Shown piece after piece: positions 20,803 through 52,869 of a stretch of 64,000 bases of DNA (position 1 is the first letter of the stretch; every line of letters begins with the position of its first letter). The position numbers and the translations under genes were made by a program. This DNA is from Psammoneis japonica. Lineage: Eukaryota. The stretch spans positions 930,001 to 994,000 of the forward strand of contig QPGO01000002.1 of the NCBI GenBank assembly GCA_008632985.1, in the 5' to 3' direction. A model generated the notes under the pieces. That model did not search any database. It saw nothing but the letters and a program-made list of their open reading frames with translations, and was not told where the DNA came from.

Positions 20803-21292
20803 ACTTCTGCAGAGATTGCTTCGTCTTTTGTTGACAGCAATTGTCGGTTCGTACTGGTTCTGATGAGTTGTGTTTTTGAGGGTTTTGGGTTTCGTTGCTC
20901 TGCTTTGGCTTGCTTTGGGCGATGATTATTCTTCATTTTCGGCGATTGATTCGTGGGTCTGCCGCCCGTTGACTGCCTCGCGGACTCGCGGACTTGCTAA
21001 AACCTTACTTCTACATACATACCAGTACGATACCGTACAATAAAAAGCCCGCGCGATCTGAACTATCCATTCTACCCTCTCCCTACGAGGTACTGTCATA
21101 GGACATTTCTTGATACACGTCATTCTCCCTCCGACAAAGCAGCAAGCGCCACCACCCACCACATCACAAAACACGTGAGTGAAAAAATCTGAAAACCATT
21201 CCAAGCGCAGTGATGATGGTTGGTGGTTGGCTCCTTTAATTTCGTGCCTCGTTCAAAGCTCGAAGTGAATCTACAAACGGACAACTGAACAA

Positions 21293-30620: not shown

Positions 30621-30949
30621 TAAATTGTAAGCATGGGGATTTCCATCTCTGGTCAAATACGAGCCACTTTGCGCTGTGAATAGAGTTGCACCTTGTTCGA
30701 AGCACCAAACGCTGTGTGCCTGAACGCGGGACCTCGAACCTTGGAACACTTTGTCTTGGGGCAAGCTCCGAGTACCGAGAATGCCGAAGCTTGTCTTCGA
30801 ATGAATGTCTCACGGTGACGTCGGAAAACGTTGGTAAACCAGATTTCTTCGTAAGCTGGCGTAGTCAGTGTTGTGTGCGGCCTCAAACACACGGTCAAAC
30901 AAGGATCCATGCAGCTGTCGTTCCTCACTCCACACGTCCAGCGCTCTCA

Positions 30950-31913
30950 GCAAAAAATGCGTTTTTTACCTGAATTAACCGCGATCACTGCCTTTACAAA
31001 AGACTCCAAATCATCTTTTGCTTTGTAACGATGCAACGTTTCATTTTGAGCCGCTTTCACAACTTCTTCGCTCCCAAACCGAAAGGTTCCCTGGAACGGT
31101 GGTGGCAAGTCCAAATTGCCAAGATCTTGCTCAAGAATGGCAAATCCCCAGTCGATGAGATGCAGTTTGCCCACTGCGTCCTCCAAAATGTCATCAGGCC
31201 GAACATCACCGAAATCCTCACAACGAAGCTCTCACTGCCAATGTCGAACTTTCAACTTGTCAGCACTTCCTTGATTGATCCTGGAAACACATTTTCAACA
31301 GCAGCATCTCCTTCTTGTCACCCAAGAGTCGACACAGAGAATGCATGCTGGATGTGCATTAGCATTAACACACAGCAGCGCTCCCACCCATGCAGTGTCA
31401 TCCCGGTGACATTCAATTTGTGAATGGAGCCAAGTCTCCATGATGCTGTTGTGCTGTTCTCAGCGAGCGATCTAGAGAGCAGAGCAATGCCGATGCAATG
31501 CACTGCATTGCGCCAACACGAGATTTGTCTTCAAGCAGTCCACTGCCGAGCAGGTCTTGGTCAGGGCCAAGATTTCGGCAACATTGTCGCAGGAAAAGGT
31601 TCCGTCGAAGGGCCCAAACAATTGGTCAAAGAACAAGGACACCTGGGGCAACTTGCATGCAATTGTACAAACCAATGACCCCGGATGCATTTAGACAATT
31701 CAACACTTTCTTCGCCTGTTGGGCCACATGCTCACACCCATGTTCCATTGCTTTGGTGACACCATTGGTTTCTCCAAGCTTTGCAGCGCACACTTTGGAC
31801 ATGGCCCCTTCCCCAACAAGAGATCGCATTTGCAGAGATTGGCCGTTGACGGGTTGTTTGAATCTTGGAAAGTCATGGCCTGGATCACTTGAAGACTTTG
31901 ACAACATGGTGAG
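30950..31913 (-). pseudogene. Kinase half of a REase+kinase (Crinkler-like) gene, degenerate
   Basis: LVGEGAMSKVCAAK (Gly-rich loop), DIRPDDILED..GKLHLIDWGFA, FQGTFRFGS, KDDLESFVK. Broken by stops and frameshifts. Confidence 0.75.
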
Positions 31914-32189
31914 TGACAGGATTTGAACAGGATTTAGGTGCGCGCGAAGCATCGCGCGCTGTTTAGTTTACCGTGCACAGTTTTGTGTGCTTTAGTTCCG
32001 CGCGTTCACGCGCGATGTAGTTTGCTTTCGAGCCACAAGGCTCACAAGAATAATAACAGTAGCCCGATTATACCGACTTACACGTCCTTCGGCTCCTGTA
32101 ACGGTCTCTGAGCGGAGACTCATCTGCTATTTAGACAGCAGTAAGGAGTTATTGTTTGAATTCTTGCCATTTGCCTTCAATTTCTATCA
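31914..32189 (+). repeat. 5' LTR (276 bp)
   Basis: TGACAGGATTTG...TTTCTATCA, direct repeat of 38748-39014. Confidence 0.97.
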
Positions 32190-33130
32190 GATTAACAGTC
32201 TTGCTCATTGTCAACCCATTGAGCAACCGCCATCGTCGTCGTTGATTTACCAACGACGCTATTTCAATTCTACGTGGACCTCCGTATATATTCTACATAC
32301 ATCGGCAAGTCTACGCGCATTCAATACCAGGGCATCGGCAGGAAGTTAACGTCACCGTCAAGTCTCCTTACCGCTGGATATCTGGATTGATTATACTACC
32401 TTTGATCGCTGAAGACTTATATTCAACGGTCATATCCAAGTCTATCCTTGATCAACATCCCTTGATATACCTATTCCTCGGTTAACGGTCAAGAACCCTA
32501 CATATTCAAGGATCTTAGTCGCTGAAGACATGTGTGTGTATATACATATCTTCACGGCCAAGAACCTTTATCCACTCTTCGGACTGCGGTTTTGCCACCA
32601 CTCTACAAGCACACCGAGTCCATTGCACCTGATCTACCCTGGACCACTGGTGCTCTACAGTTCCACTAGGTCCACGAGGATGACTGTGAGAGCAGGTGGC
32701 CGTGATTGCAGCCTACGTTGGGGCGAGGATGCTTTCCCGCGTTTGTTCGTTCGTCCACAGCGCCTGACGCCTGCGTCAACTGGCCAGCCTGATCGGGAAA
32801 TCCAACCGACATAAAATAAGAACGGTTCGGGGGTCTTGTCCACCTCCAGTCAGCTTACCTGCAGGGGTTTACAACCCGCTGCTCCACTCGTAAGCAACCC
32901 AAAGCGCCACCAGCTGCGGGTTCGGACGTGCCGGCACAACTCTGCGGACCGGATGGGAAGTTTAGCACTTGACAACGAACGGGATGACAAAGCCCGGCGA
33001 CTTCTGATTTTAAGATGGTTCAAGATTTCAAGTCAAGTCTGTTTCAAGTCAAGTCCATTCTCACCCAAGTTTCGAGTCTACCTTCGCTTCCCAACCAGAA
33101 TTGATTGTCCTGACACCACCTTTGTCTGCC

Positions 33131-36100
33131 ATGGTTCTCACTCGTCAGCAACAAACCGATGGTTTCGAGCACGTGGTTGGAACCGTGCTTGCCCAAGGTG
33201 CTGGGAGTCCTCTTCGTTTGGCTTTGGCCCAAGACGGCACGGACTCGCATCAGGAACTGTTCACGTTCATGCCGTCCCAAATCGACTCGCTTGAGTGCGA
33301 CAACGGCACCAATGCAATCCCTTTGCCCCGTGGTTGTAAGAACATGTTAGCAGCACTGGTCAGTCTGTACATTGTCAAAGCACACAAAGGTCTTGACGTT
33401 GCCAACGACTCCTCTTTGTTCACGCATGACGAGTTCCTTGCCTGCCGCCTCAGCCCCGACTGCATGTCTTCTGTGTCCATCGGCAGCTCACCCCTTGCAC
33501 CTCCACATGTCACCAACCCGACCAAGGCACGCGACCCGGTGCGGGACTTCAAGCGAGGCATCAAGCGTGATCCCACCGCTTTCACGGCTCTCAAATCCGA
33601 CAAGCAGTGGCACACTTGGCACACCTCACTTGTGGCACAAGCCCGTGCCCAAGACGTCGAGTGCATTCTAGACTCGTCGTACAAACCGACCAGCCCCGAA
33701 GACAAACTGCTCTTTGCTGAACAGCAAAAGCACATGTTCGCCGTCTTCGAACGCATCCTTCTCACCGACAAGGGCAAGGCTCTCATTCGCGAAAATGTGG
33801 GGTCTTCTGACGCACAGACCGTCTGCCGCTCCTTGTCTGAGTGCGCGCTTGCCTCCACCCGCGCATCTATCGAGTCCTCCACCCTGCTCACGCACCTCAC
33901 CACCGCGCGTCTTGGTGATGGCACTTGGAAAGGTCCGACCCACGGGTTCATCCTTCATTGGCAAGATCAGTTGCGCAAGTGCGAGGCACTCATCCCGGCC
34001 AGTGACCACTTCTCTGAAGGACAGAAGCGCGTCATGCTCGAGAATGCCGTGCACCCTGTCGAGGAACTCCGTGCTGTCAAGAACCAAGCTGATCAGCATC
34101 GTACGCAGAGTGGCAAGAGCCTCACATGCGATCAACACTGTGGCTTGCTCCTCTCCGCCGCAGCTCAGTGCGACAGCACGTTTCAACCCAAGACGACACC
34201 TCGAGCTCCCCGACGCGCCACATGCGCACACGACGTCTACTCCGAGGAACCGTCCGACGATGTGTTCTACGACATTGACAGCGACGTTGACGTCCTTCAA
34301 GCCAATGCTGCCTGCACCCGCGGTCCCAGCCTCACCGGTGTCCAATGGAGACGTCTCCCTCCCGACCACCAACGGCTCTGGGATTCGTTGCCCGATCAAT
34401 CCAAGGCGATCATCCTTGGGCATTCTCGTCCACCTCCCCGCAACTCGCGAGCCAGCAACTGCCATGAGTCTGTTACGGCCAACCTTCACGACCAACGCCT
34501 TGGGAGTGACGGTGATGTCAACTTGTCCAACACGACTCCTGCTGACTCTGGTGACTCCGCTCCACATGTGGACGCCACTTCGGACAATCCCATCCTGGCG
34601 CACCTCACCAAGCGCAAGCCACTGCCACCCGGTGATCTGCAACGTCTGTTGTCTCCTAACCAAGCACCCAATGCCAGTCGACCGGGGCCATCCGCCGCTT
34701 CCTCTACCCCGCCAGCTTCTGCAGATGACACAGAACTTAACGGTCGCACTTGCCGCCGCGTTGACAACCACAATGTCATTTACTCTGCTTCTGCTCATTG
34801 CTCCACACGCACTGGCGCTCTAGTCGATCGTGGGGCCAACGGCGGCATTGCTGGCGACGACATTCGCGTCATTGCACGCACCTCTCGCCAAGTCGACGTT
34901 CAGGGCATTGACGATCATCAATTGGTGGACATCCCCATTGTCACCGCTGGTGCCGTCATTGAGACCCAGCGTGGTCCCGTCATCGCCATGCTCCATCAGC
35001 ACGCATGCACGGGCAAGGGCAAGACCATCCATTCCTGCGGCCAGCTCGAATGGTGCAAACAGGATGTCAACGATCGCTCTGTCAAGGTGCCCAACGGCTT
35101 GCAACGCATTGCCACTCCTGATGGCTGTGTCATCCCCATTGACATCAAGGCTGGCCTGCCTTGTGTTGCCATGCGACCTTGCACTGACGCCGAATGGGAC
35201 ACCCTGCCCCATGTCATCCTCACCGGTGATGACACATGGGACCCTTCCGTCCTCGATCACTCTGTCACTGACGACGACCAGTGGTGCGACGCGATCTCTG
35301 ACCTGCAGGACGATCCCACTGCCAACCTGTTTGACGAATGCGGCAACTACCGTCATCGTGTCGTTGTCAACGAGACCATCATGTCCGCTTCCTTGTCTGC
35401 CGATCACGCGTCCGCCCTCGATGATCACCTCATTCCGAACGACGACGTGTTCTGCGAGTGTCATCTGCATGCGATTGGCCCCCAGGGCGATGATGTTCCA
35501 CCTCCGGAGCGCACTGTACAGCCCAAGGACCCCCCCTTCGAGTCTCTTCAGCCTTGCTTTGGCTTCCCACCTGCCGATGCGGTCCGTCGTACTTTTGACT
35601 GCACCACGCAGCACGCCCGCATGCCCGCCGGTACACACCTTCGCAAGGCCTGCAAATCACCCAACCCCGCCCTTAATGTGCACCGCCGCAACGAGCCTGT
35701 CGCCACTGACACCGTTCATGCCGACACCCCGGCCGTCGACTCTGGTTGCACCAGCGCCCAACTGTTTGTTGGCACCGAGTCTACCGTCACTGACGTCTAC
35801 GGCACTAAGACAGACAAAGAGTTTGTCAACACACTCGAGGATCAGATCCGTGAACGTGGTGCCCCATCCAAACTCATTGGCGACCGTGCTCAAGTTGAGA
35901 TCAGCAACAAAGTGCTCGGGATCCTACGCGCCCTCTTCATCTCTAGCTGGCAAAGTGAGCCTCACCAGCAACACCAAAACTTTGCCGAGCGTCGACACCA
36001 GACCGTGAAGCGCATGGCGAACACTGTCATGGATCGTTTTGGTTCGCCCGCCCATGCATGGCTGCTGGCGCTCATGTGCGTGTGCTTCACACTCAACCAT

Positions 36101-38791
36101 GCAGCGTCCCCACGTCTCCACTGGCGCACGCCCCTTGAGACTCTCACTGGCTCCACCCCGGACATCAGCCCATTGCTTCGCTTTCACTGGTGGGAACCCG
36201 TGTGCTTCCACCTCGATGACTCCGATTGGCCGTCCGAATCCCGTGAGTTGCGTGGATGCTTCGTTGGCATTGCTGAGCACGTCGGCCACCAGATGACCTT
36301 CAAGATTCTATCTGACGAGAATCAGAAGATCCTCTGCCGGTCCAACGTCCGCTCCGCTGCCCCCGATCCTGCCGCCCGAAACCTGCGTCTTGATCCTCCT
36401 GATGGGGAGCCACCTGAACCCATCATCAAATCTCGCCATGACGACAACCCCGTCGACTCTCCTGATGGGGAGATCAGGACACCCAAGATGCCAGTTTTCG
36501 ATCCGCAAGACATCATTGGACGTGCCTTCCTCATGCAGCCACAAGAGGACGGACAACGCCACAGAGCTCGCATCGTCAAGGCCGTCGAAGACCACGAATG
36601 GAAAGTGAACGGCAATCCCGAGCTCACTAAGTTCGTCTGCTCTGTCAACAATGACGAATACGAGGAAGTCCTTGCCTGCAATGACATCATGAATCACATT
36701 GAGCAAGAAGACGAAGACACCACTGTTTGGAAATTTCGACGCATCGTGTCACACGAAGGACCTCTGAAGCCTCATGACCCAACCTGGAAAGGCTCCAGCT
36801 ACAACATCATGCTTGAACGGGAAAGTGGGGAGATCACGTCCGAGCCTCTTGCCATCATCGCCAAGGATGACCCCGTCACCTGTGCCATCTATGCACGAGA
36901 GAACGGACTCCTCGACACGGATGGCTGGAAGCGGTTCCGCACCATCGCGAGGCACCAAAAGAAGCTATTTCGCATGGCCAACCAAGCCAAGCTTCGCTCC
37001 TTCCGCACTGCACCTCGCTACAAGTGTGGATGCGAAGTTCCCCGGAACTACAAACACGCCATGTCACTAGACGAACGCAACGGCAACCGCAAGTGGGGAG
37101 ACGCAACTAATCTCGAGATGGACCAACTCGACGAATACGAAGTCTTCCATGACTGCGGGCCCTTCAAGTCTTCCACTCCTCCTGCGGGACACAAGAAGAT
37201 CCGAGTGCACCTGGTGTACGACGTGAAACACGACGGTCGCCACAAGGCACGACTCGTAGCCGACGGGCACCTCACGGACGTACCTGTCGACAGTGTCTAC
37301 TCCGGAGTAGTCTCCCTCCGTGGCCTTCGGCTGATGATTTTCCTGGCCGAACTCAACGAGTTGGAGACATGGGCCACCGACATTGGCAATGCCTACCTTG
37401 AAGCCACCACCAAGGAGAAGCTTTACATTGTAGCTGGACCCGAGTTCGGCAAACTCGAAGGACACATCCTTGTCATCCACAAGGCACTGTATGGACTGCG
37501 CAGCTCCGGTCTCCGCTGGCACGAGCGCTTCGCCGACTGCCTGCGAGCTGAAGGCTTCTTCCCCTGCCGCGCCGAACCCGACATTTGGATGCGCAGGAAC
37601 GGCGACCACTATGAATACATTGCCGTTTATGTGGATGACCTTGCCATTGCCATGAAGGACCCTCAATCTTTCGTCGACACCCTCACGGAAAAGCACAAGT
37701 TCAAGCTCAAGGGTGCGGGACCCATTGAGTTCCATCTGGGTTGCGACTTTTCCCGGGAACCCGACGGAACCTTGTGCCTGTCTCCGCGCAAGTACATCGA
37801 GCGCATGGTCGACAGCTGTGCCCGACTGTTTGGGGAGAAACCTGCCACCAACGCCCTGTCACCTCTAGAGAAGGGTGACCACCCCGAACTGGACACTTCC
37901 GAACTGCTGGGACCCGATGGCATCCACAAGTTCCAGTCTCTTGTTGGTTCACTCCAATGGGCAGTGTCCCTTGGTCGAATTGACATTGCCACGGCCGTCA
38001 TGTCACTCTCTAGCTTCCGAGCTGCGCCCCGTCAAGGCCACTTGGATCGTGCCAAGCGCGTCTGTGGGTGCCTCTCCAAGATGCGACACGGTGCTCTCCA
38101 CGTTCGCATGGAAGAGCCCGACCATTCGGATCTCCCTGCTCCGGCCTGTGAATGGATGCATTCCGTGTATGGTGAAGCAGAAGAGATGATCCCGAAGGAC
38201 GCTCCACCGCCCCTTGGCAAGTTCGTCACTGCCACCCACTACGTCGATGCAAACTTGCACCATTGCATGCTCACCGGACGCTCTGTCATGGGAATGCTCC
38301 ACTTCCTCAACAAATTCCCGGCTGATTGGTTCTCTAAGAAACAAGCCACCGTGGAGACTGCGACCTGCGGGTCTGAATTTGTTGCCGCAAGGACTTGTGT
38401 TGAGCAGATTATCGACCTGCGCATCACCCTGCGCTACCTTGGCGTCCCGATCCGTAACGTTAGTTACATGTTCGGTGACAACAAGTCGGTTGTAGACAGT
38501 GCCACCATCCCGCACTCCAAGTTACACAAGCGACACACCGCACTGTCGTTCCACCGTGTGCGTGAGGCAATTGCCTCTGGTTACCTTGAGTTCCACTTCA
38601 TCGAAGGCTCCCGCAACCCTGCTGACATTCTCAGCAAGCATTGGGGTCACTCCCAAATCTGGGACCTTCTCCGCCCCCTCATGTTCTGGAACTTCATTCC
38701 ATCCGAAGTCGAATCTGTTTCTGTGGCTCCTCAAGCAAACTGGGGAGTGACAGGATTTGAACAGGATTTGGGTGCATCACGCGCTGTTTAG
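33131..38791 (+). CDS. Copia gag-pol polyprotein (protease, integrase, RT, RNase H), open but heavily missense-mutated
   Basis: Protease ALVDRGANGG, integrase VATDT...DRAQ...AERR, RT HKARLVADG...DIGNAYL...LYGL...YVDDL, RNase H DNKSVV...NPADILSK. Copia domain order. Confidence 0.95.
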   Translation: MVLTRQQQTDGFEHVVGTVLAQGAGSPLRLALAQDGTDSHQELFTFMPSQIDSLECDNGTNAIPLPRGCKNMLAALVSLYIVKAHKGLDVANDSSLFTHDEFLACRLSPDCMSSVSIGSSPLAPPHVTNPTKARDPVRDFKRGIKRDPTAFTALKSDKQWHTWHTSLVAQARAQDVECILDSSYKPTSPEDKLLFAEQQKHMFAVFERILLTDKGKALIRENVGSSDAQTVCRSLSECALASTRASIESSTLLTHLTTARLGDGTWKGPTHGFILHWQDQLRKCEALIPASDHFSEGQKRVMLENAVHPVEELRAVKNQADQHRTQSGKSLTCDQHCGLLLSAAAQCDSTFQPKTTPRAPRRATCAHDVYSEEPSDDVFYDIDSDVDVLQANAACTRGPSLTGVQWRRLPPDHQRLWDSLPDQSKAIILGHSRPPPRNSRASNCHESVTANLHDQRLGSDGDVNLSNTTPADSGDSAPHVDATSDNPILAHLTKRKPLPPGDLQRLLSPNQAPNASRPGPSAASSTPPASADDTELNGRTCRRVDNHNVIYSASAHCSTRTGALVDRGANGGIAGDDIRVIARTSRQVDVQGIDDHQLVDIPIVTAGAVIETQRGPVIAMLHQHACTGKGKTIHSCGQLEWCKQDVNDRSVKVPNGLQRIATPDGCVIPIDIKAGLPCVAMRPCTDAEWDTLPHVILTGDDTWDPSVLDHSVTDDDQWCDAISDLQDDPTANLFDECGNYRHRVVVNETIMSASLSADHASALDDHLIPNDDVFCECHLHAIGPQGDDVPPPERTVQPKDPPFESLQPCFGFPPADAVRRTFDCTTQHARMPAGTHLRKACKSPNPALNVHRRNEPVATDTVHADTPAVDSGCTSAQLFVGTESTVTDVYGTKTDKEFVNTLEDQIRERGAPSKLIGDRAQVEISNKVLGILRALFISSWQSEPHQQHQNFAERRHQTVKRMANTVMDRFGSPAHAWLLALMCVCFTLNHAASPRLHWRTPLETLTGSTPDISPLLRFHWWEPVCFHLDDSDWPSESRELRGCFVGIAEHVGHQMTFKILSDENQKILCRSNVRSAAPDPAARNLRLDPPDGEPPEPIIKSRHDDNPVDSPDGEIRTPKMPVFDPQDIIGRAFLMQPQEDGQRHRARIVKAVEDHEWKVNGNPELTKFVCSVNNDEYEEVLACNDIMNHIEQEDEDTTVWKFRRIVSHEGPLKPHDPTWKGSSYNIMLERESGEITSEPLAIIAKDDPVTCAIYARENGLLDTDGWKRFRTIARHQKKLFRMANQAKLRSFRTAPRYKCGCEVPRNYKHAMSLDERNGNRKWGDATNLEMDQLDEYEVFHDCGPFKSSTPPAGHKKIRVHLVYDVKHDGRHKARLVADGHLTDVPVDSVYSGVVSLRGLRLMIFLAELNELETWATDIGNAYLEATTKEKLYIVAGPEFGKLEGHILVIHKALYGLRSSGLRWHERFADCLRAEGFFPCRAEPDIWMRRNGDHYEYIAVYVDDLAIAMKDPQSFVDTLTEKHKFKLKGAGPIEFHLGCDFSREPDGTLCLSPRKYIERMVDSCARLFGEKPATNALSPLEKGDHPELDTSELLGPDGIHKFQSLVGSLQWAVSLGRIDIATAVMSLSSFRAAPRQGHLDRAKRVCGCLSKMRHGALHVRMEEPDHSDLPAPACEWMHSVYGEAEEMIPKDAPPPLGKFVTATHYVDANLHHCMLTGRSVMGMLHFLNKFPADWFSKKQATVETATCGSEFVAARTCVEQIIDLRITLRYLGVPIRNVSYMFGDNKSVVDSATIPHSKLHKRHTALSFHRVREAIASGYLEFHFIEGSRNPADILSKHWGHSQIWDLLRPLMFWNFIPSEVESVSVAPQANWGVTGFEQDLGASRAV

Positions 38792-39014
38792 TTTACCGTG
38801 CACAGTTTTGTGTGCTTTAGTTCCGCGCGTTCACGCGCGATGTAGTTTGCTTTCGAGCCACAAGGCTCACAAGAATAACAACAGCAGCCCGATTGTGCCG
38901 ACTTACACGTCCTTCGGCTCCTGCAACGGTCTCTGAGCGGAGACTCATCTGCTGTTTAGACAGCAGCAAGGAGTCATTGTTTGAATTCTTGCCATTTGCC
39001 TTCAATTTCTATCA
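38748..39014 (+). repeat. 3' LTR (267 bp)
   Basis: Copy of the 5' LTR with a 9-bp deletion and 10 substitutions. Confidence 0.97.
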
Positions 39015-40210
39015 GTGAGCAGTTGGCGTTGTCCATCACAACCAGGTTGCAGCGAGGCCGGCCTCGAAATTTTAGAAATGAGTTCACCCGCAACCTCCCT
39101 TGTCTCTACCCAGCACATCAATTTCTCACCTGAAGCACAACAGAAAAGTGCTGCGCAAGCTCGTGGCCGACCCCTTTGAATGGAGAGCAAATGCTCGTCA
39201 CAGTCGACAATCTCCATTGGATCAGCATCATGAAACTGTTTCTTCTGCTCAAATGCGATTGCGATGTCATGCTTCGAATTGGGTGTTTTGACTCTGTCAG
39301 ATGAAGCTGCCAGCACTCCATCTGGCATGCATTCAGTCGTGTGGAAATCAGGTTCAACGCTGGCTGACATTCCATTGTCTGGCTTGAGCCAATGACCTGA
39401 TTTCGACCAGAACAATTGCTGGTGGATTGAGTGTCCACCGGCCACTGCAGAGTCGACAAGCTTTTTCATCTCACGAAGAAAGCAAGGATGATGCACTCCC
39501 ATTTCATCTTGTGAAGGGCTTGGTGCGTTGCTCTAGAATGCATCTGTTGAAACAGGATCCACGAGATTGAAAAAGAAATCCTCTCCAAAAGAGACGCGAT
39601 TCTGGACAACCAAGCTGGAAAATGCATGACTCTTGGACACATGGGAAAGAGTGCGTTTTGGATGCCCCTTGTCTTCAACAATCCTGTGCTTGACAATCAA
39701 CGATTCCAGAACCTCTTCCACATGCCTTTCAGCAGAAGCTGCATCCCCAACTTCTCCCACGTGCAGTTTGAATGCATGGGGTCCGTCATGAGCATTTACC
39801 GTCTTGTCATTCAAAAGGCCAATGTCTTGGCGGTCGAAGAGTCCTCTGACTGCTGCCATGCCAAGCCTCTCCAGAGCCTGCAATTTCATGTCGCCCACTC
39901 AAACCTTGCCTGACACTGTTCCCCTGCCATCCCTCACTTTGACAATGCTTCTTGACATGCTTCCCTTCCTCTCTGGCTCATTTCACCACCATGTGGATGC
40001 CTCCAGAGTGGGACGATGTCATCACACAATGTGCAAGCATTCAGTGGATGGCAATCTCCACCGCAAACTCCTTTTCAGGATGAAGAAGAAAAGTTGTGAT
40101 CGTTTGTTGTGAAGAAACAACAGCAGCAACTCCACCGGATGTCTTGCTTGCACCAATCTGCTTGTGATGATCTGCTGGAATGCTTCTTCAATTGATTTCA
40201 TCCAACGATT
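39015..40210 (-). pseudogene. N-terminal/REase half of the gene interrupted by the copia insertion
   Basis: EPDF...IAIAFEQKK is PD-(D/E)xK-like. Removing the element and one TSD rejoins GQRQLLT to MLSKSSS in frame. Confidence 0.65.
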
Positions 40211-43200
40211 GCTGCATGAAAGTGGGGGGGCGAAGCGACCCCGTTGCTGCTGCAACAACAAGAGAGAAGCAAGGAAGGAAGAGAGACAACGAAGGCAGCA
40301 AGCAAAGAATTGAAAGTGGCAAGTGACAAGTTGAAGTGATGGGTGGTGCGTTGTTGCATTTGCGCACTGCCACAACGCACAACACATGTGTGTTCGGTTG
40401 TTGAACATGAAGCACATGAGCCAATGTCACATAAAAAATGGCTTGGGTTGATTTCATTTGGGCACCACTGCCACCCCCCATTTCTCGTCTTCCATCTTGG
40501 TCCCAACCAAAGACGAAAGAAAGGCTAGAACCACAATGCTGACAATGAATTTACATTTGCAGGCTGCTTTGATGAACAATGTTCATCATGTGGCGCTCAC
40601 CCTCCAGCAGCAACCCACACCAGCAAAAGTTTGTTTTGGAAAGATGGAAAATCCCACCCGCGCACCACGGTGGCAACAGAATTTTTGAGCAAGAGCCCAC
40701 TGAAAATTTGGTGGCACCTGCAGTGGCAGCCAAAATGTTGACAAACTCACCCAAAATTGATCAGCAGGAATTGGAGTGCAACAAGGCCCAAGGTGCAGAA
40801 TGTCGTGCCAGCGGGGATGAGTGGCAACCTTTTCTTGGGAATCTGCAGACTTGGATTTTTTTGTGCTTGGCCCATCAGGCAGCATTGGCAGTGGCTCATG
40901 GTTCCTCTTGTGTGGGTTCACCACAGTTGACATGGGATTGGACTGAGTTGAATGTGGGTTTCTTGTCCCATGCTTGTTGTTGCACATGCATCGGTCTGTG
41001 TCGCTTGCTGCTGCTGCACCGGTTGCAGCCCTTCTCATTTCTGGCTGCACTCTTGTGCTTTTCAATTGTTCTGGGTGCACTGTCAAATGTCACTTGCCAT
41101 TGTCTTCTTTCAGTTCTTCAACATTCTTGGGCACAGGATGAGAGACTCCTGCTTGCTCTGCCAGCGTGTTGACATGCTGTTGGAGCTTGCTGCTGCAGTT
41201 GAGCAGGAAAGCAGGAATGCCTTGAAAGGCATGCAGAATCTTGGCACACTTGTCTGCCATCATTTTGTCAATTCAGAGATGCTCTTTAATTGACATGTTT
41301 TGCACTCACACGTTCCCGCAAGGCACAGCACATCCACTGGCAAGCTTTTTGAACTGGTGCTTCCAAAATGCTTGACGATGTGGTGGCACTTTTCAAGCTT
41401 CGATTCCATGCAGGTGGTTGTCACAAAAGTGTTGAGCTTACACTTGGACCATTTTGAAGGCTTCACAACTCTGTGCAAGTCTTCATGTGGCAGCCACTCA
41501 CCGCCGGCTTTGCATCTTCTTTGGCACAAAGTGGCTTGCCAGAATCTGGGTCGCACCACCTGCCCACCCACCTCTCCGCCGCTCCGGGAGATGCAGAGCC
41601 CTTGTGCAGATCAAACCAAGATTAAAGATTGCTGTTCCATGTTTCCTCAGGCTGAGTCCACCTTTGAATGTGCTTTTTGCAATTGCACTTCTTCCTTTGT
41701 GTTTTTCTTCCCACCAAGTTTTCCAAAGATGAGAGCATCAATCACCCTCGCCTTGTCGGGTTCGTTGTTGTGCTGCACGCAATCCTTCAACTCACAAACT
41801 GCATGACAACAGTCAATGTGAGTGCCTTGCAATGTCCAAATGATCCAGTTGGTCCAGTGGTGCCAAAGACCAAGCCTGCATGCAATGTCCAGACCATAAA
41901 TTTGTTTCCAAATTTCTTCCTCATTTGGCCAGGTGTCCGAGCAATGAACTTGAGGTTGACATTCGGATGCCTCACAACCTGCTCCAGTGCATGGGCACAG
42001 TCTTTTGTCTCCAATGTTGGCACAACTGCATCTGTGCCAATCTCTCCTGTCTCTGTGGCCATGGTGAAAAGTCCCTCTTTCCATTGTCATCTTCACAATT
42101 CTTCAACTGGTCAAAAGTGTGGTCAGACACAACACTGATGCAACAACCCACCAATTGAATTTTTCTTTTGTGTGCCAGATGTTGTTGCTTGTGCCAGTCT
42201 CAATGAGGTTTGATTGCCAGGCAAAGTCATGCATGTCTCTTGTGTTTTTTCCTGTGGGTCCATGGCAACTAATCCAATCCTCAAATGCCAACAATGCAAT
42301 CACATCTGAGTGCATCTTTCAACAAAGAACAGCACATCTCCTCTTTGTCAACAAAAGTTTTGCCTCTTTGTTGATGAAGAAAAGAAGAAATGCCATTGCC
42401 CTTGCTGTGCATTTTCATTGCATGGTCAACATGTTGCAACATTGGAAGCATTGGATGAAAATGACAGATTTGCAGCTGCATGTTGTGGGTCCAAGGGACA
42501 GCTTGTTTGGAGAGGCCTTGGCAGCTGCTTGGCCAGCCTTGCACCATTGCCCTTGCATCTGCAACCACACTTGTTGAGCTTGTGCATCATTGCTGTTGCC
42601 CAATCAGCAGCACCTCTTAAGTCAAAAATTGGAGTTGGCAGATTCTCATTCTTGATGTCAAACTGCTGGTGCATCAACTCACCATTGCATCCATCATCAA
42701 TGCACTCCAAACATGCATTGAGGTGGTTCAATTCCCAGTGGATGGCATGAACTGCAACACCTTCAATCTCACTGAAGAGGTCATCAGGAGTTTTGGTTGT
42801 GTCATCATGTGGCACTGCGCAAATGACATGGCATCAGGAGGGAAGTTCTTCTGACACCATTGGAGCTTCTTGGCATTGACATCACCACCCATGATCTTTG
42901 TTCAAGTTGGCATGAAACTGAGATGGGCACAAGTTTAGAAAATGCAGTGTCAAAGCCTGTGCCAGTGCAGGACAAGAAATTTTCTTCTTTTTGCATGTGT
43001 CAACTCACCTCTCAAGAAAGAGGGTCTTCTTCAATGTCAGTGAAAGAACCTGTGGCACTGTTTGACGTGGCGGTGCTGACAGCAGCGGTGGTGACAGGTG
43101 ACAGCATTGGACGAGTTGGTCATTGCAGATGGCTTGTTGTTTTTTGAAGCCCTGGCACCATTGTGGAACTGTGCCTCCTCCACACCTTCCTCAGCTGAGG

Positions 43201-44400
43201 GCTTGCTTGGTGCTCATGTTTTGCCATGGCAGATGGATTTGGGGCAGCTTGCATCATGACCCCTTTTGCAAAAGGGCCCTTGTTTGCACCTTTTGCACAA
43301 CAACCTTTTCTTGAGTGGTGTGGCTGTTTGGCAGAGTCAGAATTTGCAACTCTGCCATCACCGCTGGCGACATTGTAAACCAAGGCACATTTTTCTTGTC
43401 AACTCAGCAACTCCAGAAAAAGCTTGCTCCTTTGCTTTTTTCATGGCTGGCTTTTAAGCCTGAGACTGAATGCCTGTGGTGTTGAGAAGCTTGAGCAGAG
43501 GGTGCTTCTCCATTCTGCTGCAATTCCTTCTCTCAGAACTCTCTTGCACAGGTTGGTGCTGATGATGAGTGAGATGAAAAAGGGCCGGAGGAGTTTGAAT
43601 TTTTTGTGGGGTGTCTTTGTCTGAGCACTGCCACTCAGATTGCAGCACATCCATCTGAGATGGCTCAACCAAGATGGTCATGTCTGTGTTGCAGGAATTG
43701 TCAAATGATGTGATGACATGCATTCTTTCAAAAAGCTTTGAGCATTGCAGCATGTGTTCTTGAAACAAAGATGCTGCAATGCTGTCTGTGGCAACGCACA
43801 ACCAGGAAATGACTCCTTGAAAACCTTGCATCCAACTGCTGGGCATTGCAGAATGGCCAGTTTTGCAAAAAGAGAAGCACTGAGAATGGCAGTGAAGACC
43901 CATTGCAAGGTCATGAGTGCATTCATGACAGACAGATTGGGTCTCACAATGTGGGCCAAATGGTGGCTTCAAGTGAATTGTTCAATCAATCAATCATGCT
44001 TCAGAGATGGAGCACATGGCAGATTCAGACATGGCTCCATTCAACCTTCCTCAAAGAAGGGCAGTGAGAGAGAGAGGTGAAGAAGCTCAAGTTGAAAGAT
44101 GGGGGGTGCTTGATTCATTGAGTTGTCAAGACCCTGGACATTTGCCCAAACCGCAGTGGCAACAGCCACCACCATTTGGCAAGACAACAGCACAGCCACC
44201 ACCACCACCACTGCAGAGTGGAGTGATGGATGTGCACATTGTTTGGGACAATTGCATCATGAACAATGACGACAATGTCCCGCCAATTTGTCACATGCAT
44301 GGATGCCCTTTCCATTGATGCAACGCAACAGCAGAAGCTGGATTTGTTCTTGCCCATGTTGTCATCCACCCATTCACCTGAATCTCCCACACAACAACGA
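40210..44400. other. Strongly TpA- and CpG-depleted block of fossil coding/TE sequence
   Basis: Very few TA over ~4 kb. Protein-like fragments on the minus strand at 41260-43100 cannot be assigned. Confidence 0.55.
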
Positions 44401-44479
44401 TGATGTCCACAGCCCCATGGCATGTCCAATTGCGCGCCAACTTCAAATTGTGGTGAGACAGATCAATTTGCCAAAAGGG

Positions 44480-45320
44480 GTCACATGATGGAAGGATGTG
44501 ACAGCATCATCTGTGATCGCAACAACAAGGAGAATGGGCTCCAATGATGCAAGTGCCTGTCCAGCCACACAAAATGAATGACAAGGGGTTCACAGTCTCT
44601 GCCTGCATTGTTGTCACATGGACACACCCAAAAATGGGTCGATGGCAGGCATGATTCACAAAAACAAACACAACCCACACAACTCAACCAGCTTGACTTT
44701 TTGTTTCACACCACACTGCAGCAAGTGACTCCTGGTCACACAAACGGCCAAAAGGGCAGCATCCAGTGACTCCCATGGTGGCACCAATTTCCATCGCACC
44801 CACATGCAAATGGCCGAAAGGGAGGCATCCACCCACACCTCAATGTGCAGTCCATTGCACAGTGAGCACTTGTCAAAAAATTTTTCATCCAAGTGGTGCC
44901 ACACTTTTGCATGAGGGTGTGCTTGGTTTGACAAAAGGTGCACATGTCATTCAGGAATGGTTGTGTGTTGATTGAACAACAGATGCTCAAGACAGGCATG
45001 GTGGGTGGGGGTGACGCAATGCCAATGTCAAAATGTCACGGACATTGTGAGGTGTGTCATCAGGTTCAGGCTCGGTCAACAAGGAGGCATCATAAAACAA
45101 TCCATCAGGAAAGGTGTGTGCATTGGTGGCATCTGGATTGGACCATTCCATGTGCAACAACAAGTCATTGCCAATGTGTGGCAAGGGGCAAAAACAACAA
45201 AGCATTGTCACTGCTGCTGCTGTTGCCACAAGACAACAAAGCTTTAAAAGCTGGTTCACACTTCTGCTCACATTGTCTTTGCAACTGAATCTCTCCTGGG
45301 AGTGCTTGGTCACAGTCCTC
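44480..45320 (-). pseudogene. Fossil type II membrane gene, possibly sulfotransferase-like
   Basis: Hydrophobic N-terminal segment, then LMQKCGTTWMKNFL resembling the 5'-PSB loop (KxGTTW). Frameshifted and TA-depleted. Confidence 0.4.
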
Positions 45321-45358
45321 GTTCCATTGTCGCTCGCTCAAGAGGATCACTGGTCATC

Positions 45359-46107
45359 ATGTCTGCAACTTCGTTTGTGGCTCAATTTGAAGGCAATGAA
45401 TTGTGGGAAGCATCCTGGAAGGAGTCAGAAGGGAGCAAATGCACAAAGAAAAAGAAGAGTGACGGATTCAACTTTTATGCATCTTGGTTCTGTCCTTTTG
45501 CACAGCGGTCTTGGATTGCACTGGAAGAGGCCGGGGTTGACCACAACTGTGTCGAGGTGAATTTGCACAAGGAGGACCATCTGAAAAAGGATGTTACACA
45601 AAGAAAGCTCTGAGTCTCGAGAAAAAACGAGAGCTGTGCCCAGAATTCATCAGGGCGCCAAAAGATCCGTATGAACGTGCAATGGTCCAGATCTGGAGCG
45701 CCCATTGCACTGATCGAATCAACAATGCACACTGTCTAGCACTGGTGGCTCAGGATGCGAAGAAGCAACAACAACACGTTTGGCAGTTTCTGTTGGAATG
45801 CCGTGCATTGTCCCAAGCCATGAGCAAGAACGGTCCTTACTTTCTTGGAGATCGCTTCTCCATGGTCGACATAGCCTTGGCGCCATTCTTTCAGCGCATT
45901 CTGTGGGTAGGAAAACATTATATTGGGTTGGAATTGCCATTGGACGACGAGGATTTTGTTCGGTTAAGAAATTGGTGGGAAACGGTCCGCAAACGACCAT
46001 CAGTGGCTGCCACCATGGTTTCTAGGGATCGGCTTATTTCTTCATATTCGCACTACTCAAGGAACATCGCAACGTCAGACTTTGCAAAAACTGCCTTGAG
46101 TAATTAG
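45359..46107 (+). pseudogene. Glutathione S-transferase (omega-like) pseudogene
   Basis: FYASWFCPFAQRSWIALEE, PKDPYERA, GPYFLGDRFSMVDIALAPF. Frameshift at ~45590 and apparent loss of the G.VP...ES segment. Confidence 0.8.
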
Positions 46108-46236
46108 GGAACGTTACAGCTACCGGCAGCTATAGCTCCAGATTCTGTGGAAGAAAACTCTATTACCTAGAGTTCAAAAGTTGAATGCATTTCTCGTTCT
46201 GCAACAAAAGACCAGCTATGATCCGGTCTTCCCTGC

Positions 46237-46812
46237 CTATGGCTCAATCTCTACAACGCACTCCACTTCTGTCGTAATGTTGAGTGGCAGTGCGTTGGTT
46301 CCGACAGCAGAACGGGCATGAACTCCACGTTCGCCAAAGACTTGAGCAAACAAATCAGACGCCCCATTAATCACTTTAGGTTGCTCTTGAAAGTCATTGG
46401 TACAATTGACAAAGCCCACAACCTTGACAATTCGTTTGATTCGACCCCAATCGCCGCCCAACTCTCGGTTGAGGGTGCCCAGAATATTCATGGCACACGC
46501 ACGAGCACTATCATATCCGTCTTGTGTCGACAAGGTATCTCCAACTGTGCCTTGGATCAGCTTATTGTTTGGCCCCGCCGTTGGTATATGGCCACATAGA
46601 TACAGCATGTTTCCCGTCTGGACGCAACTGACATAGTTTCCTTTTGGCGCGGGTGATTCAGGTACAACAATGTTTAGGTCTTCCAACTTTGCCTCGATTT
46701 CTCTCGTCCTTTTCTTCCGTGACAGTTTGCGAGCAAAAATCACAAATGAACAACCAGCTGCGACGCAACTCGCAACAAGAGCGCTTGGTGATATAGACGA
46801 AGAGGGCGGCAT
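46237..46812 (-). CDS. RidA/YjgF/UK114 family protein
   Basis: PKGNYV..VQTGNMLYLCGH, IVKVVGFVN, QPKVINGASDL...GERGVHARSAVG..LPLNITTEVE. Confidence 0.93.
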   Translation of the reverse strand: MPPSSSISPSALVASCVAAGCSFVIFARKLSRKKRTREIEAKLEDLNIVVPESPAPKGNYVSCVQTGNMLYLCGHIPTAGPNNKLIQGTVGDTLSTQDGYDSARACAMNILGTLNRELGGDWGRIKRIVKVVGFVNCTNDFQEQPKVINGASDLFAQVFGERGVHARSAVGTNALPLNITTEVECVVEIEP

Positions 46813-46899
46813 CAGGAGCGTTGATTTTTGACATCAGAAGAAAAATGAAAGAGAATGCTGAAATACGGTGCATGGAATCTGAAATCCGCGCCACAGCAG

Positions 46900-50950: not shown

Positions 50951-51274
50951 TAAACATGTTTTCGATCATTAATTCCACATTTTCGAGAATGAATACAGCA
51001 CTCGAATTTAATTTTATTCGGAAACGGAAAACACAGCATTTCGAAATTTTGCGTCGCGCCAACCAAAAACTCGAAAAACTGAAACACCACTTCGCCGCTT
51101 ATTGACCCACATCATTGCGGCAACCAAGGCAAGTACCGGTAAGGGAGAGAGATGGACATTCTAAAGCGTCGAGAGAGCGATGCAGTGGAGGGCGTTGCTG
51201 AACACACAGTGCCGCATCAATGCAAAAAAGAATCAGAGAGAGAGAAAACGCCGCTTAAAAAAATGCACGCCACA

Positions 51275-52757: not shown

Positions 52758-52869
52758 CAAGTTGATGACATTCTTTAGCATTCCGAGAACTCTCACAGCA
52801 GAAGAAACTGCATGCGCACACCAGCCAGAAAATTGAGCTTCTCTCTATCATGGACAGTTCTAGAGAGCC

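Follow-up and report, generated by a model that had tools for sequence, protein, structure and literature searches.

Loss of TpA dinucleotides and of conserved tyrosines in an open-frame Ty1/copia retrotransposon from a diatom genome

Introduction

The locus described here raises the question of how a retrotransposon polyprotein can stay open along its whole length when cysteine or histidine stands at many positions at which its relatives carry tyrosine. It lies in a 64,000-nucleotide stretch of the diatom Psammoneis japonica (GenBank assembly GCA_008632985.1, contig QPGO01000002.1, positions 930,001 to 994,000 of the forward strand), hereafter the window, in which all coordinates below are numbered. 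A sequence-only reading of this DNA had proposed that the tyrosines were lost through mutation of TpA dinucleotides, a process unable to turn a sense codon into a stop codon, and that inactivation would be by missense. Here, the protein-coding region, the two LTRs, the surrounding DNA and the sequencing reads are considered in turn.

Structure of the element

The window carries one complete Ty1/copia LTR retrotransposon at 31914-39014. The element has a direct pair of LTRs with TG...CA ends and is flanked by a 5-bp target site duplication (TSD), GTGAG, whose left (31909..31913) and right (39015..39019) copies were read directly; its integrase lies upstream of an RVT_2-type reverse transcriptase (RT), as is typical of Ty1/copia. 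All parts of the element read on the forward strand. The 5' LTR (31914..32189; 276 bp, 17 TpA) is followed by a leader (32190..33130) and by the gag-PR-IN-RT-RNaseH polyprotein open reading frame (ORF; 33131..38791), while the 3' LTR (267 bp, 8 TpA) occupies 38748..39014 and is immediately preceded by a polypurine-rich sequence, ctggggag (38740..38747, read directly), a putative polypurine tract. As had been claimed, the polyprotein frame stays open, from 33101 (TTG) or 33131 (ATG) to 38791, with 1896 codons and no interrupting stop; its stop codon falls 44 nucleotides inside the 3' LTR. The GC content of the element is 57%, compared with approximately 48% for the whole window.

The protease aspartate, D576 in the motif VDRGANGG (34826..34828), is invariant in the homologue alignment A3 described below and is intact, as are D870, D928 and E963 of the integrase core (35708..35992), next to which Tyr873 and Tyr966 have become His and Ser927 has become Gly. 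The RT (37178..37816; Pfam RVT_2, residues 1360-1572, E value of 2e-29) retains its YVDD motif at 37628-37639. A Pfam search of the polyprotein returned no match to rve or gag. Among the homologues listed, the closest likewise have no rve match and carry PF07727 only, and a gag match is missing from the homologues too, so this absence characterizes the clade and does not signal decay. The closest relatives of the element among the homologues listed are abundant in aquatic metagenomes.

Replacement of conserved tyrosines

A broader alignment of 41 sequences (A2; the query and 40 of 150 homologues) was fragmented and gave 21 tyrosine columns, with 12 kept, three Cys, two His, three Phe and one Ile in the query. 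It was replaced by a closer set, A3, comprising the query and 31 of the 120 homologues listed (P0001 among them), in which 761 columns reached a consensus of at least 80%. The query deviates from the consensus at 78 of these columns. Of the 42 strongly conserved tyrosine columns in A3, 19 are kept in the query and 20 now hold cysteine (n = 13) or histidine (n = 7), with Phe at the other three, whereas every non-tyrosine residue class is kept at 75 to 100%.

Tyrosine loss of this kind is far above that in the homologues and is enriched at inferred TpA sites, in agreement with what the sequence-only reading expected of such an alignment. In a leave-one-out comparison each of the 31 homologues showed zero to two Tyr-to-Cys/His changes, and a pooled, profile-based count found Cys or His in 12 of their 1,298 tyrosine cells (Fisher p = 8e-25 versus the query). 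Many of the 20 lost tyrosines fall in columns that hold Tyr in 29 to 31 of the 31 homologues. The change is also one-way, as the 12 of 150 homologues tested pairwise gave 7 to 25 instances per pair of a homologue tyrosine facing a query cysteine or histidine and only zero to two of the reverse.

The peptide strings quoted in the sequence-only reading are all present at the expected places (16/16), and the ancestral motifs that it gave coincide with the consensus of A3. Its 15 motifs contain 22 Cys or His residues, 16 of which stand where the homologues most often have tyrosine; three of the remaining six are conserved histidines, and three occupy positions at which Phe or Met is commonest and Tyr second. 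The description of the replacement as running throughout the protein was accurate in that all five parts of the polyprotein are changed, but the changes are unevenly spread: Cys or His replaces Tyr at seven of nine conserved columns in the gag-like part, four of six in PR plus IN, two of five in the linker, four of nine in RNase H and only three of 13 in the RT. The composition of the ORF, with 27 Tyr (1.42%), 52 Cys (2.74%), 87 His (4.59%) and zero ATA codons, differs from that of the homologues, in which Tyr makes up about 3.5 to 4.5% and Cys about 1%. At 0.24, its observed/expected ratio (o/e) for TA is the lowest of 80, these being the query and the longest ORFs of 79 metagenomic relatives (0.27 to 0.95).

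Dinucleotide context of the changes

The substitution spectrum of the ORF is centered on TpA. A T stands 5' of 17 of the 20 A>G changes inferred at conserved columns (p = 4e-10), and an A stands 3' of seven of the eight T>C changes inferred there (p = 6e-5). Changes of A>G at the first codon position are informative because the genetic code leaves their context free, and four of six follow a T, compared with 22.8% of codons that end in T (p = 0.027). Changes at codon junctions had been said to fit as well; S927G in LIGDRAQ and three threonine-to-alanine replacements do so, each following a T. An enumeration of all codons and contexts found that TA>TG/CA turns zero sense codons into stop codons, so the frame would remain open whether or not the protein works. 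The derivation of the TGY and CAY codons from TAY by TpA mutation is thus upheld by the context within the ORF and by the codon enumeration, as well as by the LTR pair.

A second, weaker process, CpG>TpG/CpA, which the sequence-only reading did not mention, is also present and accounts for eight of the 52 unambiguous single-step differences at conserved columns. The CpG o/e of the element is still 0.93, while its TpA o/e is 0.24.

Comparison of the LTRs

The two LTRs differ by 10 substitutions. In nine of these, TA in the 5' LTR faces TG (n = 4) or CA (n = 5) in the 3' LTR; the tenth is CG>CA, which leaves no other type. The 3' LTR also has a 9-bp deletion relative to the 5' LTR. As the TSD is perfect, both LTRs stem from a single insertion, at which point their sequences were the same, and the differences therefore reflect TpA>TpG/CpA change at the DNA level after integration. 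The direction of the nine differences was assigned from the polarity seen in the ORF and from the saturated blocks around the element. Both outcomes are seen, in the LTR as in the ORF (13 Tyr>Cys and seven Tyr>His); therefore, both strands were targeted.

This spectrum is not that of LTR pairs in general. In the five control pairs of metagenomic relatives that showed differences, 7 of 57 were of the TA type, and in all ten control repeat pairs pooled the figure was 49 of 447 (Fisher p = 2e-6). Even against the 95% upper bound for the non-YpR sites of the LTR, its TpA loss per site is higher by a factor of about 24 or more.

The changes are also confined to part of the element. The 5' LTR has a TA o/e of 0.89, and the leader starts at 1.02 over its first 460 bp (to approximately 32650) before declining to 0.44 over 32651-33130; the values for the ORF and the 3' LTR are 0.24 and 0.47, respectively. 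The first approximately 750 bp of the element, comprising the 5' LTR and the proximal leader, were thus spared by the TpA process, and the 9:0 asymmetry between the LTRs has a binomial p of 0.004.

Surrounding DNA and a host gene

The element is inserted inside older blocks that have been stripped of nearly all TpA and most CpG. To the left of the insertion lies a TpA-poor block with single-copy read depth (30901..31908; the segmentation block 30901-32000, which includes the start of the 5' LTR, has TA o/e 0.18 and CG 0.69), and to the right lies a TpA-free, CpG-poor block without recognizable genes (39020..45900; segmentation block 38901-45900, with TA o/e 0.06, CG 0.31, TG 1.75 and CA 1.80). 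Six blocks of this type, totaling approximately 20 kb or about one-third of the window, have TA o/e values of 0.06 to 0.18, CG of 0.11 to 0.69, and TG and CA of 1.5 to 1.9. Within internal repeats at 1332-2506, the 43 to 52 mismatches include 11 to 15 adjacent TG-versus-CA doublets and 10 to 11 CG-versus-TG/CA sites, whereas in a repeat from normal DNA (52255-52757), used as a control, none of the 18 mismatches forms such a doublet. This pattern is the trace left when the copies resolve a single ancestral YpR site in different ways.

The identity of these blocks was sought by several routes. Among 110 stop-to-stop ORFs of at least 90 amino acids in the TpA-free blocks, none scored above the Pfam cutoff except glutathione S-transferase (GST) fragments at the edge, 45248-45900; tblastn with 15 copia proteins gave no match in the window outside the element; no homologue was found for a 349-amino-acid block ORF and no ESM Atlas match for one of 332 amino acids; and no tandem array was detected in 38900-55300 except one 31-bp repeat. 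It is for the copia element that the targeting of foreign DNA has been demonstrated, the other blocks being without recognizable transposable element (TE) or viral genes.

The targeting is regional. An ABC-F gene of the host at 21269-22690, compared with 30 of the 120 homologues listed, shows zero Tyr>Cys changes in 312 tyrosine cells and has been spared by the TpA process, and the genic background TA o/e in the window is about 0.5 to 0.6. Homology of this gene also assigns the host to the diatoms, whereas an ESM Atlas search with its protein was uninformative as to taxonomy.

Family copies in the sequencing reads

Reads were aligned to the window at 80% likeness, and the results below come from 40 of 288 variable places (family share of at least 0.89). 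Four of these places have TG or CA in the window and TA in the family, 10 have TG or CA in the window and CG in the family, and three have TA in the window and TG or CA in the family. Of the changes inferred from homologues, three of the CpG type and one of the TpA type (34862, 36954, 38109 and 36524) are independently private to this copy in the reads; at all four positions 95 to 100% of family reads carry the ancestral letter. Most of the family read depth has Cys at the conserved Tyr750 (89%) and Tyr1504 (99%), both of which this copy keeps as Tyr, suggesting that family members with Cys at these two sites are abundant. The summed read depth, which is a sum and not a copy number, is about 60,000 to 200,000 over the element and about 55 to 140 over its flanks, suggesting that the element family is itself very abundant.

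Proposed process and alternative explanations

We consider it likely that this copia copy was hypermutated from TpA to TpG/CpA after integration, by a context-specific process acting on chromosomal DNA. Once the element had integrated, the TpA sites of the chromosomal copy, being self-complementary, would have undergone A:T>G:C transitions on either strand, and about half of those between approximately 32700 and the 3' LTR end would have been converted; within the ORF, TAY (Tyr) codons would become TGY (Cys) or CAY (His), ATA would become ATG, and NNT-ANN junctions would become NNT-GNN. In the older surrounding DNA, this process would have reached saturation, accompanied by slower CpG>TpG/CpA decay. 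It may represent a host genome defense activity against mobile or foreign DNA. The chemistry could be enzymatic deamination of adenine at TpA to hypoxanthine, read as G, by a candidate enzyme activity; as TpA is palindromic, a thymine-directed modification at TpA resolved to C would fit the sequence data equally well.

Among the alternatives, the one that survives best holds that most of the TpA and tyrosine loss in the ORF was inherited from a lineage under recurrent TpA mutation or TpA-avoiding selection that was still competent for transposition, such that this copy is functional and only the changes in the 3' LTR are postinsertional. The RT keeps 10 of 13 conserved tyrosines and the rest of the protein only 9 of 26 (p = 0.019), with a similar density of non-tyrosine TA across regions, which hints that part of the tyrosine loss may predate the insertion and have been filtered by selection. 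The catalytic motifs are all intact, the 78 deviations in 761 columns lie within the range of the homologues (22 to 96), and the profile score of 2851 bits compares with 2931 to 3032 for three homologues that belong to the training set. Among the 40 of 288 variable places, few TpA changes of the ORF are seen in this copy alone, and the family reads with Cys at Tyr750 and Tyr1504 may mean that mutated master copies have proliferated. Inheritance of most of the loss is nevertheless unlikely. When the element inserted, its LTR carried 17 TpA over 276 bp (o/e 0.89), and its leader had an o/e of 1.02. The U3 of a daughter element is copied from the 3' LTR of its parent, and since the ORF and 3' LTR are mutated together here, the parent was probably unmutated. 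Furthermore, 20 conserved tyrosines are gone, many of them from the 29-to-31-of-31 columns, and no homologue has more than two such changes. Loss of function of this copy by missense is plausible, even though its catalytic motifs are intact and its profile score is near those of the homologues.

Far less probable is A-to-I editing at the RNA level, in which an ADAR-like activity with 5' U preference would act on sense and antisense transcripts and the changes would be fixed by reverse transcription. A>G after T does match the neighbor preference of ADAR-type enzymes, and double-stranded RNA could account for both strands, but ADARs are known as a metazoan family, and large non-retroelement blocks and their internal repeats bear the same footprint. 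The LTR asymmetry contradicts this explanation directly, as both LTRs share one template and yet differ at nine TpA sites between intact TSDs. Equally improbable is a reading with the opposite polarity at the 5' end, in which RIP-like C>T change at CpA/TpG made TpA in the 5' LTR and leader while the 3' LTR kept the original sequence. Two LTRs alone cannot polarize nine differences, and the TA o/e of the 5' region (0.89 to 1.02) exceeds the genic background; however, 31 homologues fix the direction in the ORF as TA>TG/CA, the long-term end state in the window is TpA loss and not gain, and the ORFs of relatives reach TA o/e values of 0.8 to 0.95 without such a process. Least credible of all is that no process was targeted and that the pattern reflects either GC-biased gene conversion, as a general AT>GC bias, or codon usage that avoids TpA. 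This would suit the higher GC content of the element and the underrepresentation of TpA in most genomes but not the dinucleotide specificity (17/20 A>G after T), the removal of invariant tyrosines or the changes in noncoding LTR DNA with zero non-YpR substitutions.

Comparison with known systems

The closest likeness to post-integration TpA hypermutation is found in Bigelowiella natans. In mutation accumulation lines of this alga, two integrated viral regions yielded 231 mutations, of which 230 were A>G or T>C, all of these falling on TpA according to the authors, at a rate approximately 1,000 times the background and in some lines only; an ADAT2-like deaminase was proposed as a candidate, and the 5' U preference of ADAR-type enzymes was discussed for the A>G changes (Mettrop et al., bioRxiv 10.64898/2026.01.13.699255). 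According to the preprint, the genome also has TpA-poor clusters rich in CpA and TpG, and reverse transcriptase and DDE domains are overrepresented in its TpA-poor coding sequences. There, in integrated NCLDV and virophage DNA, as here, A:T>G:C change at TpA gives TpG or CpA according to strand and is regional and far above background; just as host genes in B. natans stay at background, in the window the copia ORF and 3' LTR are changed and the ABC-F gene is spared. The two cases differ in that B. natans is a chlorarachniophyte (Rhizaria) with viral targets, whereas here the host is a diatom (Stramenopiles), the target is an LTR retrotransposon and the timing is based on LTRs. In addition, CpG decay accompanies TpA loss in the old blocks of the window, while the main text of the preprint is silent on CpG, LTRs, retrotransposons and diatoms. 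The B. natans study measured de novo rates; the footprint described here is historical only.

Fungal repeat-induced point mutation (RIP) is similar in that it is a DNA-level, dinucleotide-specific and regional process that changes mobile DNA in place after insertion. RIP, however, converts C to T mostly at CpA, thereby creating TpA, lowering GC and making stop codons, whereas here TpA is destroyed (o/e 0.24), CpA and TpG are enriched, GC is raised and no stop is possible. The deaminase-type, context-dependent hypermutation of retroelements by APOBEC3 and ADAR in animals is a further likeness. These enzymes act on cDNA or RNA before integration, leaving both LTRs alike, and APOBEC acts as strand-asymmetric C>U; in the present element, the LTRs differ at nine TpA sites and both strands are changed.

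Cytosine methylation is described as controlling TEs in diatoms (PMC9998398). Decay of methylated CpG resembles the CpG>TpG/CpA changes seen here at eight conserved columns, at one LTR site and at 10 among the 40 of 288 read places, and CpG loss is near saturation in the old blocks. It cannot explain the loss of TpA, as CpG o/e is 0.93 and TpA o/e 0.24 in the young copy. In domain order (gag-PR-IN-RT-RH) and host, the element is like the CoDi elements, the diatom Ty1/copia group of Maumus et al. (2009; PMC2806351), a paper in which a term search found no mention of TpA, hypermutation or deamination. A search of literature outside subscription journals likewise found no report of TpA hypermutation in diatoms or LTR retrotransposons; within that literature, the B. 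natans preprint of 2026 is the only published parallel found.

Implications

If post-integration TpA hypermutation has occurred as proposed, it would not be peculiar to one chlorarachniophyte but would extend to diatoms, which are major phytoplankton, and to LTR retrotransposons. In such genomes, an open reading frame would be no proof of an active element, and TE annotations and counts of intact copies would be inflated; the loss of TpA would also yield long spurious ORFs in other frames. Because all 10 LTR substitutions here are at TpA or CpG sites, dating by LTR divergence would overestimate age unless TpA and CpG sites are masked. Tyr>Cys/His replacement, TG-versus-CA doublets between copies and LTR asymmetry would provide a footprint for tracing the enzyme and its targeting rule, for which the protected 5' LTR and leader are a further lead.

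A wider reading, which we advance tentatively and to which we give somewhat less than even weight, is that diatoms possess a RIP-like genome defense that creates no stop codons and edits TpA in chromosomal mobile or foreign DNA, by adenine deamination or a thymine-directed route, in a region-specific manner and at a pace well above that of CpG decay. The two combined would turn every pyrimidine-purine step to TG or CA, giving "YpR-collapsed" DNA, which would make up approximately one-third of the window. On this reading, the abrupt sparing of the 5' LTR and proximal leader would tie targeting to the state of the chromatin or to transcription and not to repeat homology alone. The occurrence of such a system in a rhizarian as well as in a stramenopile would suggest that it is ancient and possibly shared across SAR.

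Structure of the copia element

The long frame first noticed from sequence alone exists (33101, TTG, with the first ATG at 33131, to 38791, forward strand; 1,896 codons, all open) and is part of a complete Ty1/copia LTR retrotransposon at 31914-39014. The 5' LTR (31914-32189) and the 3' LTR (38748-39014), both on the forward strand, have TG...CA ends, a purine-rich tract lies immediately upstream of the 3' LTR, and the element is flanked on both sides by a perfect 5-bp target duplication, GTGAG (31909-31913 and 39015-39019). The integrase residues D870, D928, and E963 are upstream of the reverse transcriptase (RT), matching the gene order of Ty1/copia. The sole Pfam match in the polyprotein is RVT_2 (residues 1360-1572, E 2e-29). 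As PF07727 is the only Pfam domain in the 120 closest database relatives listed, the missing integrase and gag matches are a trait of the clade and not decay. The ORF extends 44 nt into the 3' LTR, with the C-terminal end ...GVTGFEQDLGASRAV* (38641-38791); several homologues share a similar ...RGVT...QE/QD tail, and reading into the LTR is thus a family trait.

Loss of conserved tyrosines

The sequence-only reading held that conserved Tyr residues are replaced by Cys or His throughout this polyprotein, and the analysis bore this out. All 16 of its quoted peptide strings were found, and the consensus motifs it gave (QYAY, RPYTD, ERRYQ, GYKKI, YGYL, and TATYGSE) match the consensus of an alignment of the polyprotein with 31 of the 120 closest homologues listed (51 to 62% identity to this copy; columns with at least 80% consensus were taken as conserved). 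Its 15 motifs contain 22 Cys or His residues, of which 16 are on Tyr-majority columns; three others are conserved His, and three are on columns dominated by Phe or Met, with Tyr ranking second.

The polyprotein contains 1.42% Tyr, 2.74% Cys, and 4.59% His and has no ATA codons, compared with about 3.5 to 4.5% Tyr and about 1% Cys in homologues. This copy deviates at 78 of 761 conserved columns. At the 42 conserved Tyr columns, 19 residues are kept and the others are Cys (n = 13), His (n = 7), or Phe (n = 3), whereas retention of every other residue class is 75 to 100%. In a leave-one-out analysis over the 31 homologues, each carried zero to two Tyr-to-Cys/His changes, and using a homologue-only profile, Cys or His occupied 12 of 1,298 Tyr cells in homologues versus 20 of 42 in this copy (Fisher p = 8e-25). 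The change is one-directional: pairwise comparisons with 12 of 150 representatives gave 7 to 25 positions per pair with Tyr in the homologue and Cys or His in this copy, and zero to two of the reverse. By majority rule, Tyr is the commonest homologue residue at 25 of the 52 Cys and 13 of the 87 His positions.

The RT segment (37001-37900) has 12 TAY codons (13.3/kb), compared with 1.7 to 5.6/kb in the rest of the ORF, while the density of non-Tyr TA is alike across segments. Retention of conserved Tyr was 10 of 13 in RT and 9 of 26 in the remaining ORF (p = 0.019). This excess may be a weak hint that part of the loss was filtered by selection before insertion, or it may reflect local heterogeneity of the process.

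Sequence context of the changes

Of the 78 deviations at conserved columns, 58 can be explained by a single nucleotide change. Unambiguous A>G changes (n = 20) had a 5' T in 17 cases and T>C changes (n = 8) a 3' A in seven; all six G>A changes had a 5' C, both C>T changes had a 3' G, and 16 changes were of other kinds. The 5' T is fixed by the genetic code in most A>G cases (Tyr to Cys), and A>G changes at first codon positions form the context-free subset. Four of these six (S927G and three Thr-to-Ala changes) follow a codon ending in T, compared with 22.8% of codons ending in T (p = 0.027); S927G is the LIGDRAQ codon-junction case to which attention had already been drawn. The TA observed/expected ratio (o/e) of the ORF is 0.24, below that of the longest ORF in every one of 79 metagenomic relatives (0.27 to 0.95), and the depletion spans all three codon phases.

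Enumeration confirmed that conversion of TA to TG or CA does not turn a sense codon into a stop in any context; the stop codons TAA and TAG can themselves yield only TGA, CAA, TGG, and CAG. For CpG decay, the sole stop-creating change is CGA>TGA. RIP converts CpA to TpA and creates stops, and is a functional analogue of the TpA process acting in the opposite direction.

Timing of the changes and a protected 5' region

The LTRs are noncoding and, because the target duplication is intact, were identical at integration. They now differ by 10 substitutions and one 9-bp deletion. Nine of the substitutions are TA in the 5' LTR versus TG (n = 4) or CA (n = 5) in the 3' LTR, the tenth is CG>CA, and there are none of other kinds. 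Among five differing LTR pairs of metagenomic relatives (L002, L013, L014, L019, and L039), 7 of 57 differences were TA-type; the corresponding count was 49 of 447 when all ten repeat pairs were pooled, a set that takes in two 1.1-kb internal repeats that we do not regard as LTRs (L055 and L077) and three identical pairs. The excess over controls was significant (Fisher p = 2e-6), and the per-site loss of TpA in the LTR exceeded the 95% upper bound for sites outside pyrimidine-purine steps by a factor of at least about 24. As the LTR differences cannot predate integration, the target of the process must be chromosomal DNA, and as both TG and CA arise, both strands are hit. The proposal that TpA mutation had produced the Cys and His residues is therefore supported, since the ORF contexts, the LTR differences, and the TA o/e of the relatives agree and the substitutions are enriched at ancestral TpA.

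All nine TA differences between the LTRs run in one direction (9:0, p = 0.004). TA o/e starts at 0.89 in the 5' LTR, stands at 1.02 in the leader to 32650, drops to 0.44 between there and the ORF, and is 0.24 within the ORF and 0.47 within the 3' LTR; the spared stretch is thus the first ~750 bp of the element (31914-32650, the 5' LTR and first ~460 bp of leader), with the remainder having lost about half or more of its TA. This escape could be due to promoter-proximal protection, to chromatin- or transcription-coupled targeting, or to patching by gene conversion with an unmutated copy. Because the daughter U3 derives from the parent 3' LTR and the LTR had a TA o/e of 0.89 at integration, the parent copy was probably unmutated, in which case the damage to the ORF would for the most part be younger than the insertion.

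TpA-depleted blocks and host genes

The element is nested in an older block (30901-31908 and 39020-45900) with a TpA o/e of 0.06 to 0.18, a CpG o/e of 0.31 to 0.69, and TG/CA at 1.5 to 1.8. Further TpA-depleted blocks were identified by composition at 901-4700, 17901-19500, 46701-51100, and 52801-55200. Together the depleted blocks cover ~20 kb of the 64-kb window (TpA o/e, 0.06 to 0.18; CpG o/e, 0.11 to 0.69; TG/CA, 1.5 to 1.9), with some 1-kb stretches having zero TA. They are complex, nontandem sequence interleaved with normal host genes, and Pfam, copia, and database comparisons of the blocks gave no matches. Glutathione S-transferase domain fragments are present at a TpA-free block edge (45248-45900 and onward), and the neighboring stretch, 46001-47000, is of normal composition (TA o/e 0.51); block boundaries therefore closely abut host genes.

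Internal repeats at 1332-2506 (84 to 87% identical) showed 11 to 15 adjacent TG-versus-CA doublets and 10 or 11 CG-versus-TG/CA sites among 43 to 52 mismatches, a pattern that an ancestral TA or CG site resolved independently in each copy would produce. A control repeat of normal composition (52255-52757; tandem duplication of ~247 bp, 92% identical) had no TG-versus-CA doublets in 18 mismatches. Two ORFs in TpA-free blocks, of 349 amino acids (53620-54666, forward strand) and 332 amino acids (48311-49306, reverse strand), exceed chance length, being equaled in 1 and 4 of 300 first-order Markov simulations, respectively. They contain 0% Tyr, 5 to 9.5% Cys, and 5 to 7% His, and searches for homologues of either were empty; judged by composition, they could be the remains of coding sequences in which conversion reached every Tyr codon.

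Long uninterrupted ORFs in the window represent host genes for an ABC-F ATPase, a Deltex-like RING protein, a GOST-family membrane protein, and a NOX-like EF-hand protein. The best named relatives of the ABC-F protein (gene at 21269-22690) are all from diatoms (Grammatophora at 82%, then Corethron, Eucampia, Pseudo-nitzschia, Attheya, Chaetoceros, and Skeletonema), which places the window in a diatom genome, as the sequence-only reading had taken for granted. Against 30 of 120 homologues listed, it showed no Tyr-to-Cys change in 312 Tyr cells, and 19 Tyr-to-His cells pooled over columns.

The family in reads and in other genomes

Contigs of the one public run found to contain this DNA were compared with the window at 80% likeness or above, placing 14,318 pieces. 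Summed depth, which does not equal copy number, was about 60,000 to 200,000 over the element and about 55 to 140 over the flanks, a ~1,000-fold difference, and the copia family appears to be highly abundant and highly polymorphic here. Transitions made up 254 of the 288 variable places (A>G, 69; T>C, 87; G>A, 57; C>T, 41). A dinucleotide breakdown covered 40 of the 288, all with a family share of at least 0.89: the window has TG/CA where the family has CG (n = 10) or TA (n = 4), TA where the family has TG/CA (n = 3), and CG where the family has TG/CA (n = 4), with 19 others. Among homologue-inferred changes, the reads confirm that V588I, R1285H, and T1670M (CpG-type) and T1142A (TpA-type) are private to this copy. 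At the conserved Tyr750 (35348-35350) and Tyr1504 (37610-37612), TAY is retained in this copy, whereas TGY (Cys) accounts for 89% and 99% of the family depth, respectively. Family members bearing Tyr-to-Cys changes may thus have proliferated, which speaks against lethality of any one of these changes.

Two of the 79 metagenomic relatives have the same signature: L069 (1-2759), in which 13 of 25 conserved Tyr are now Cys or His (TA o/e 0.34), and L021 (2-1972), with 6 of 18 (TA o/e 0.27). As these are only ~65% identical to this copy, the process extends beyond its family.

Nature of the process and fate of the copy

A TpA process acting after integration is likely. The process is a DNA-level, TpA-specific A:T>G:C change on both strands that is regionally bounded; in the young copia copy it far outpaces both the background and CpG decay, and it spares one host gene and is saturated in neighboring old DNA. 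Editing of the ADAR or APOBEC type was excluded, as it acts before integration, whereas the LTRs are asymmetric and the diatom process is postintegrative.

The copia process is of the same kind as a system very recently described in the rhizarian Bigelowiella natans, the only report of this type of mutation found in our literature search. In mutation-accumulation lines, 230 of 231 mutations in integrated NCLDV and virophage sequences were A>G/T>C, all on TpA according to the authors, at a rate ~1,000 times background; RT and DDE domains were overrepresented among TpA-poor coding sequences, and the authors put forward an ADAT2-like protein as a candidate enzyme (Mettrop et al., 2026, bioRxiv 10.64898/2026.01.13.699255). 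The main text of that preprint makes no mention of CpG, LTR, retrotransposon, or diatom, and no report of TpA hypermutation in diatoms was found in full-text literature searching, in Maumus et al. (2009), or in a 2025 diatom TE preprint. The diatom system differs in major lineage and in target class, an LTR retrotransposon, and adds a clean internal timing argument and a protected 5' region.

We infer a host activity aimed at mobile or foreign DNA. The simplest chemistry would be an adenine deaminase at TpA, with hypoxanthine pairing with C, as is also proposed in the B. natans preprint. A thymine-directed modification at TpA, resolved to C, would fit the sequence data equally, because TpA is self-complementary. 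A dedicated defense system shared with Rhizaria is possible, although we lean slightly against it.

This copy may have been killed by missense, as had been proposed. Twenty Tyr residues nearly invariant in the clade are lost, including one beside the first integrase Asp and that of ETATYGSE, presumably the RNase H ...EAEY motif. Against this, the catalytic positions survive, with no change to the protease Asp, to the integrase DDE residues, or to the YVDD motif of RT, the 78 deviations at 761 conserved columns are inside the homologues' range (22 to 96), and the profile score (2,851 bits) is near that of three homologues (2,931 to 3,032 bits), all three of which were in the training set. The accompanying point on annotation holds whether the copy is dead or alive, as it would escape flagging by ORF-based and HMM-based methods alike.

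Further long ORFs, of 272 to 392 amino acids, lie across the copia ORF, either in another frame or on the opposite strand (33668-34798, reverse; 33714-34823, forward; 34830-36008, forward; 34820-35638, reverse). Because TAA and TAG are nearly absent, leaving TGA as the sole remaining stop, TpA loss lengthens ORFs in every frame, and such ORFs in TpA-depleted DNA are a trap for gene callers.
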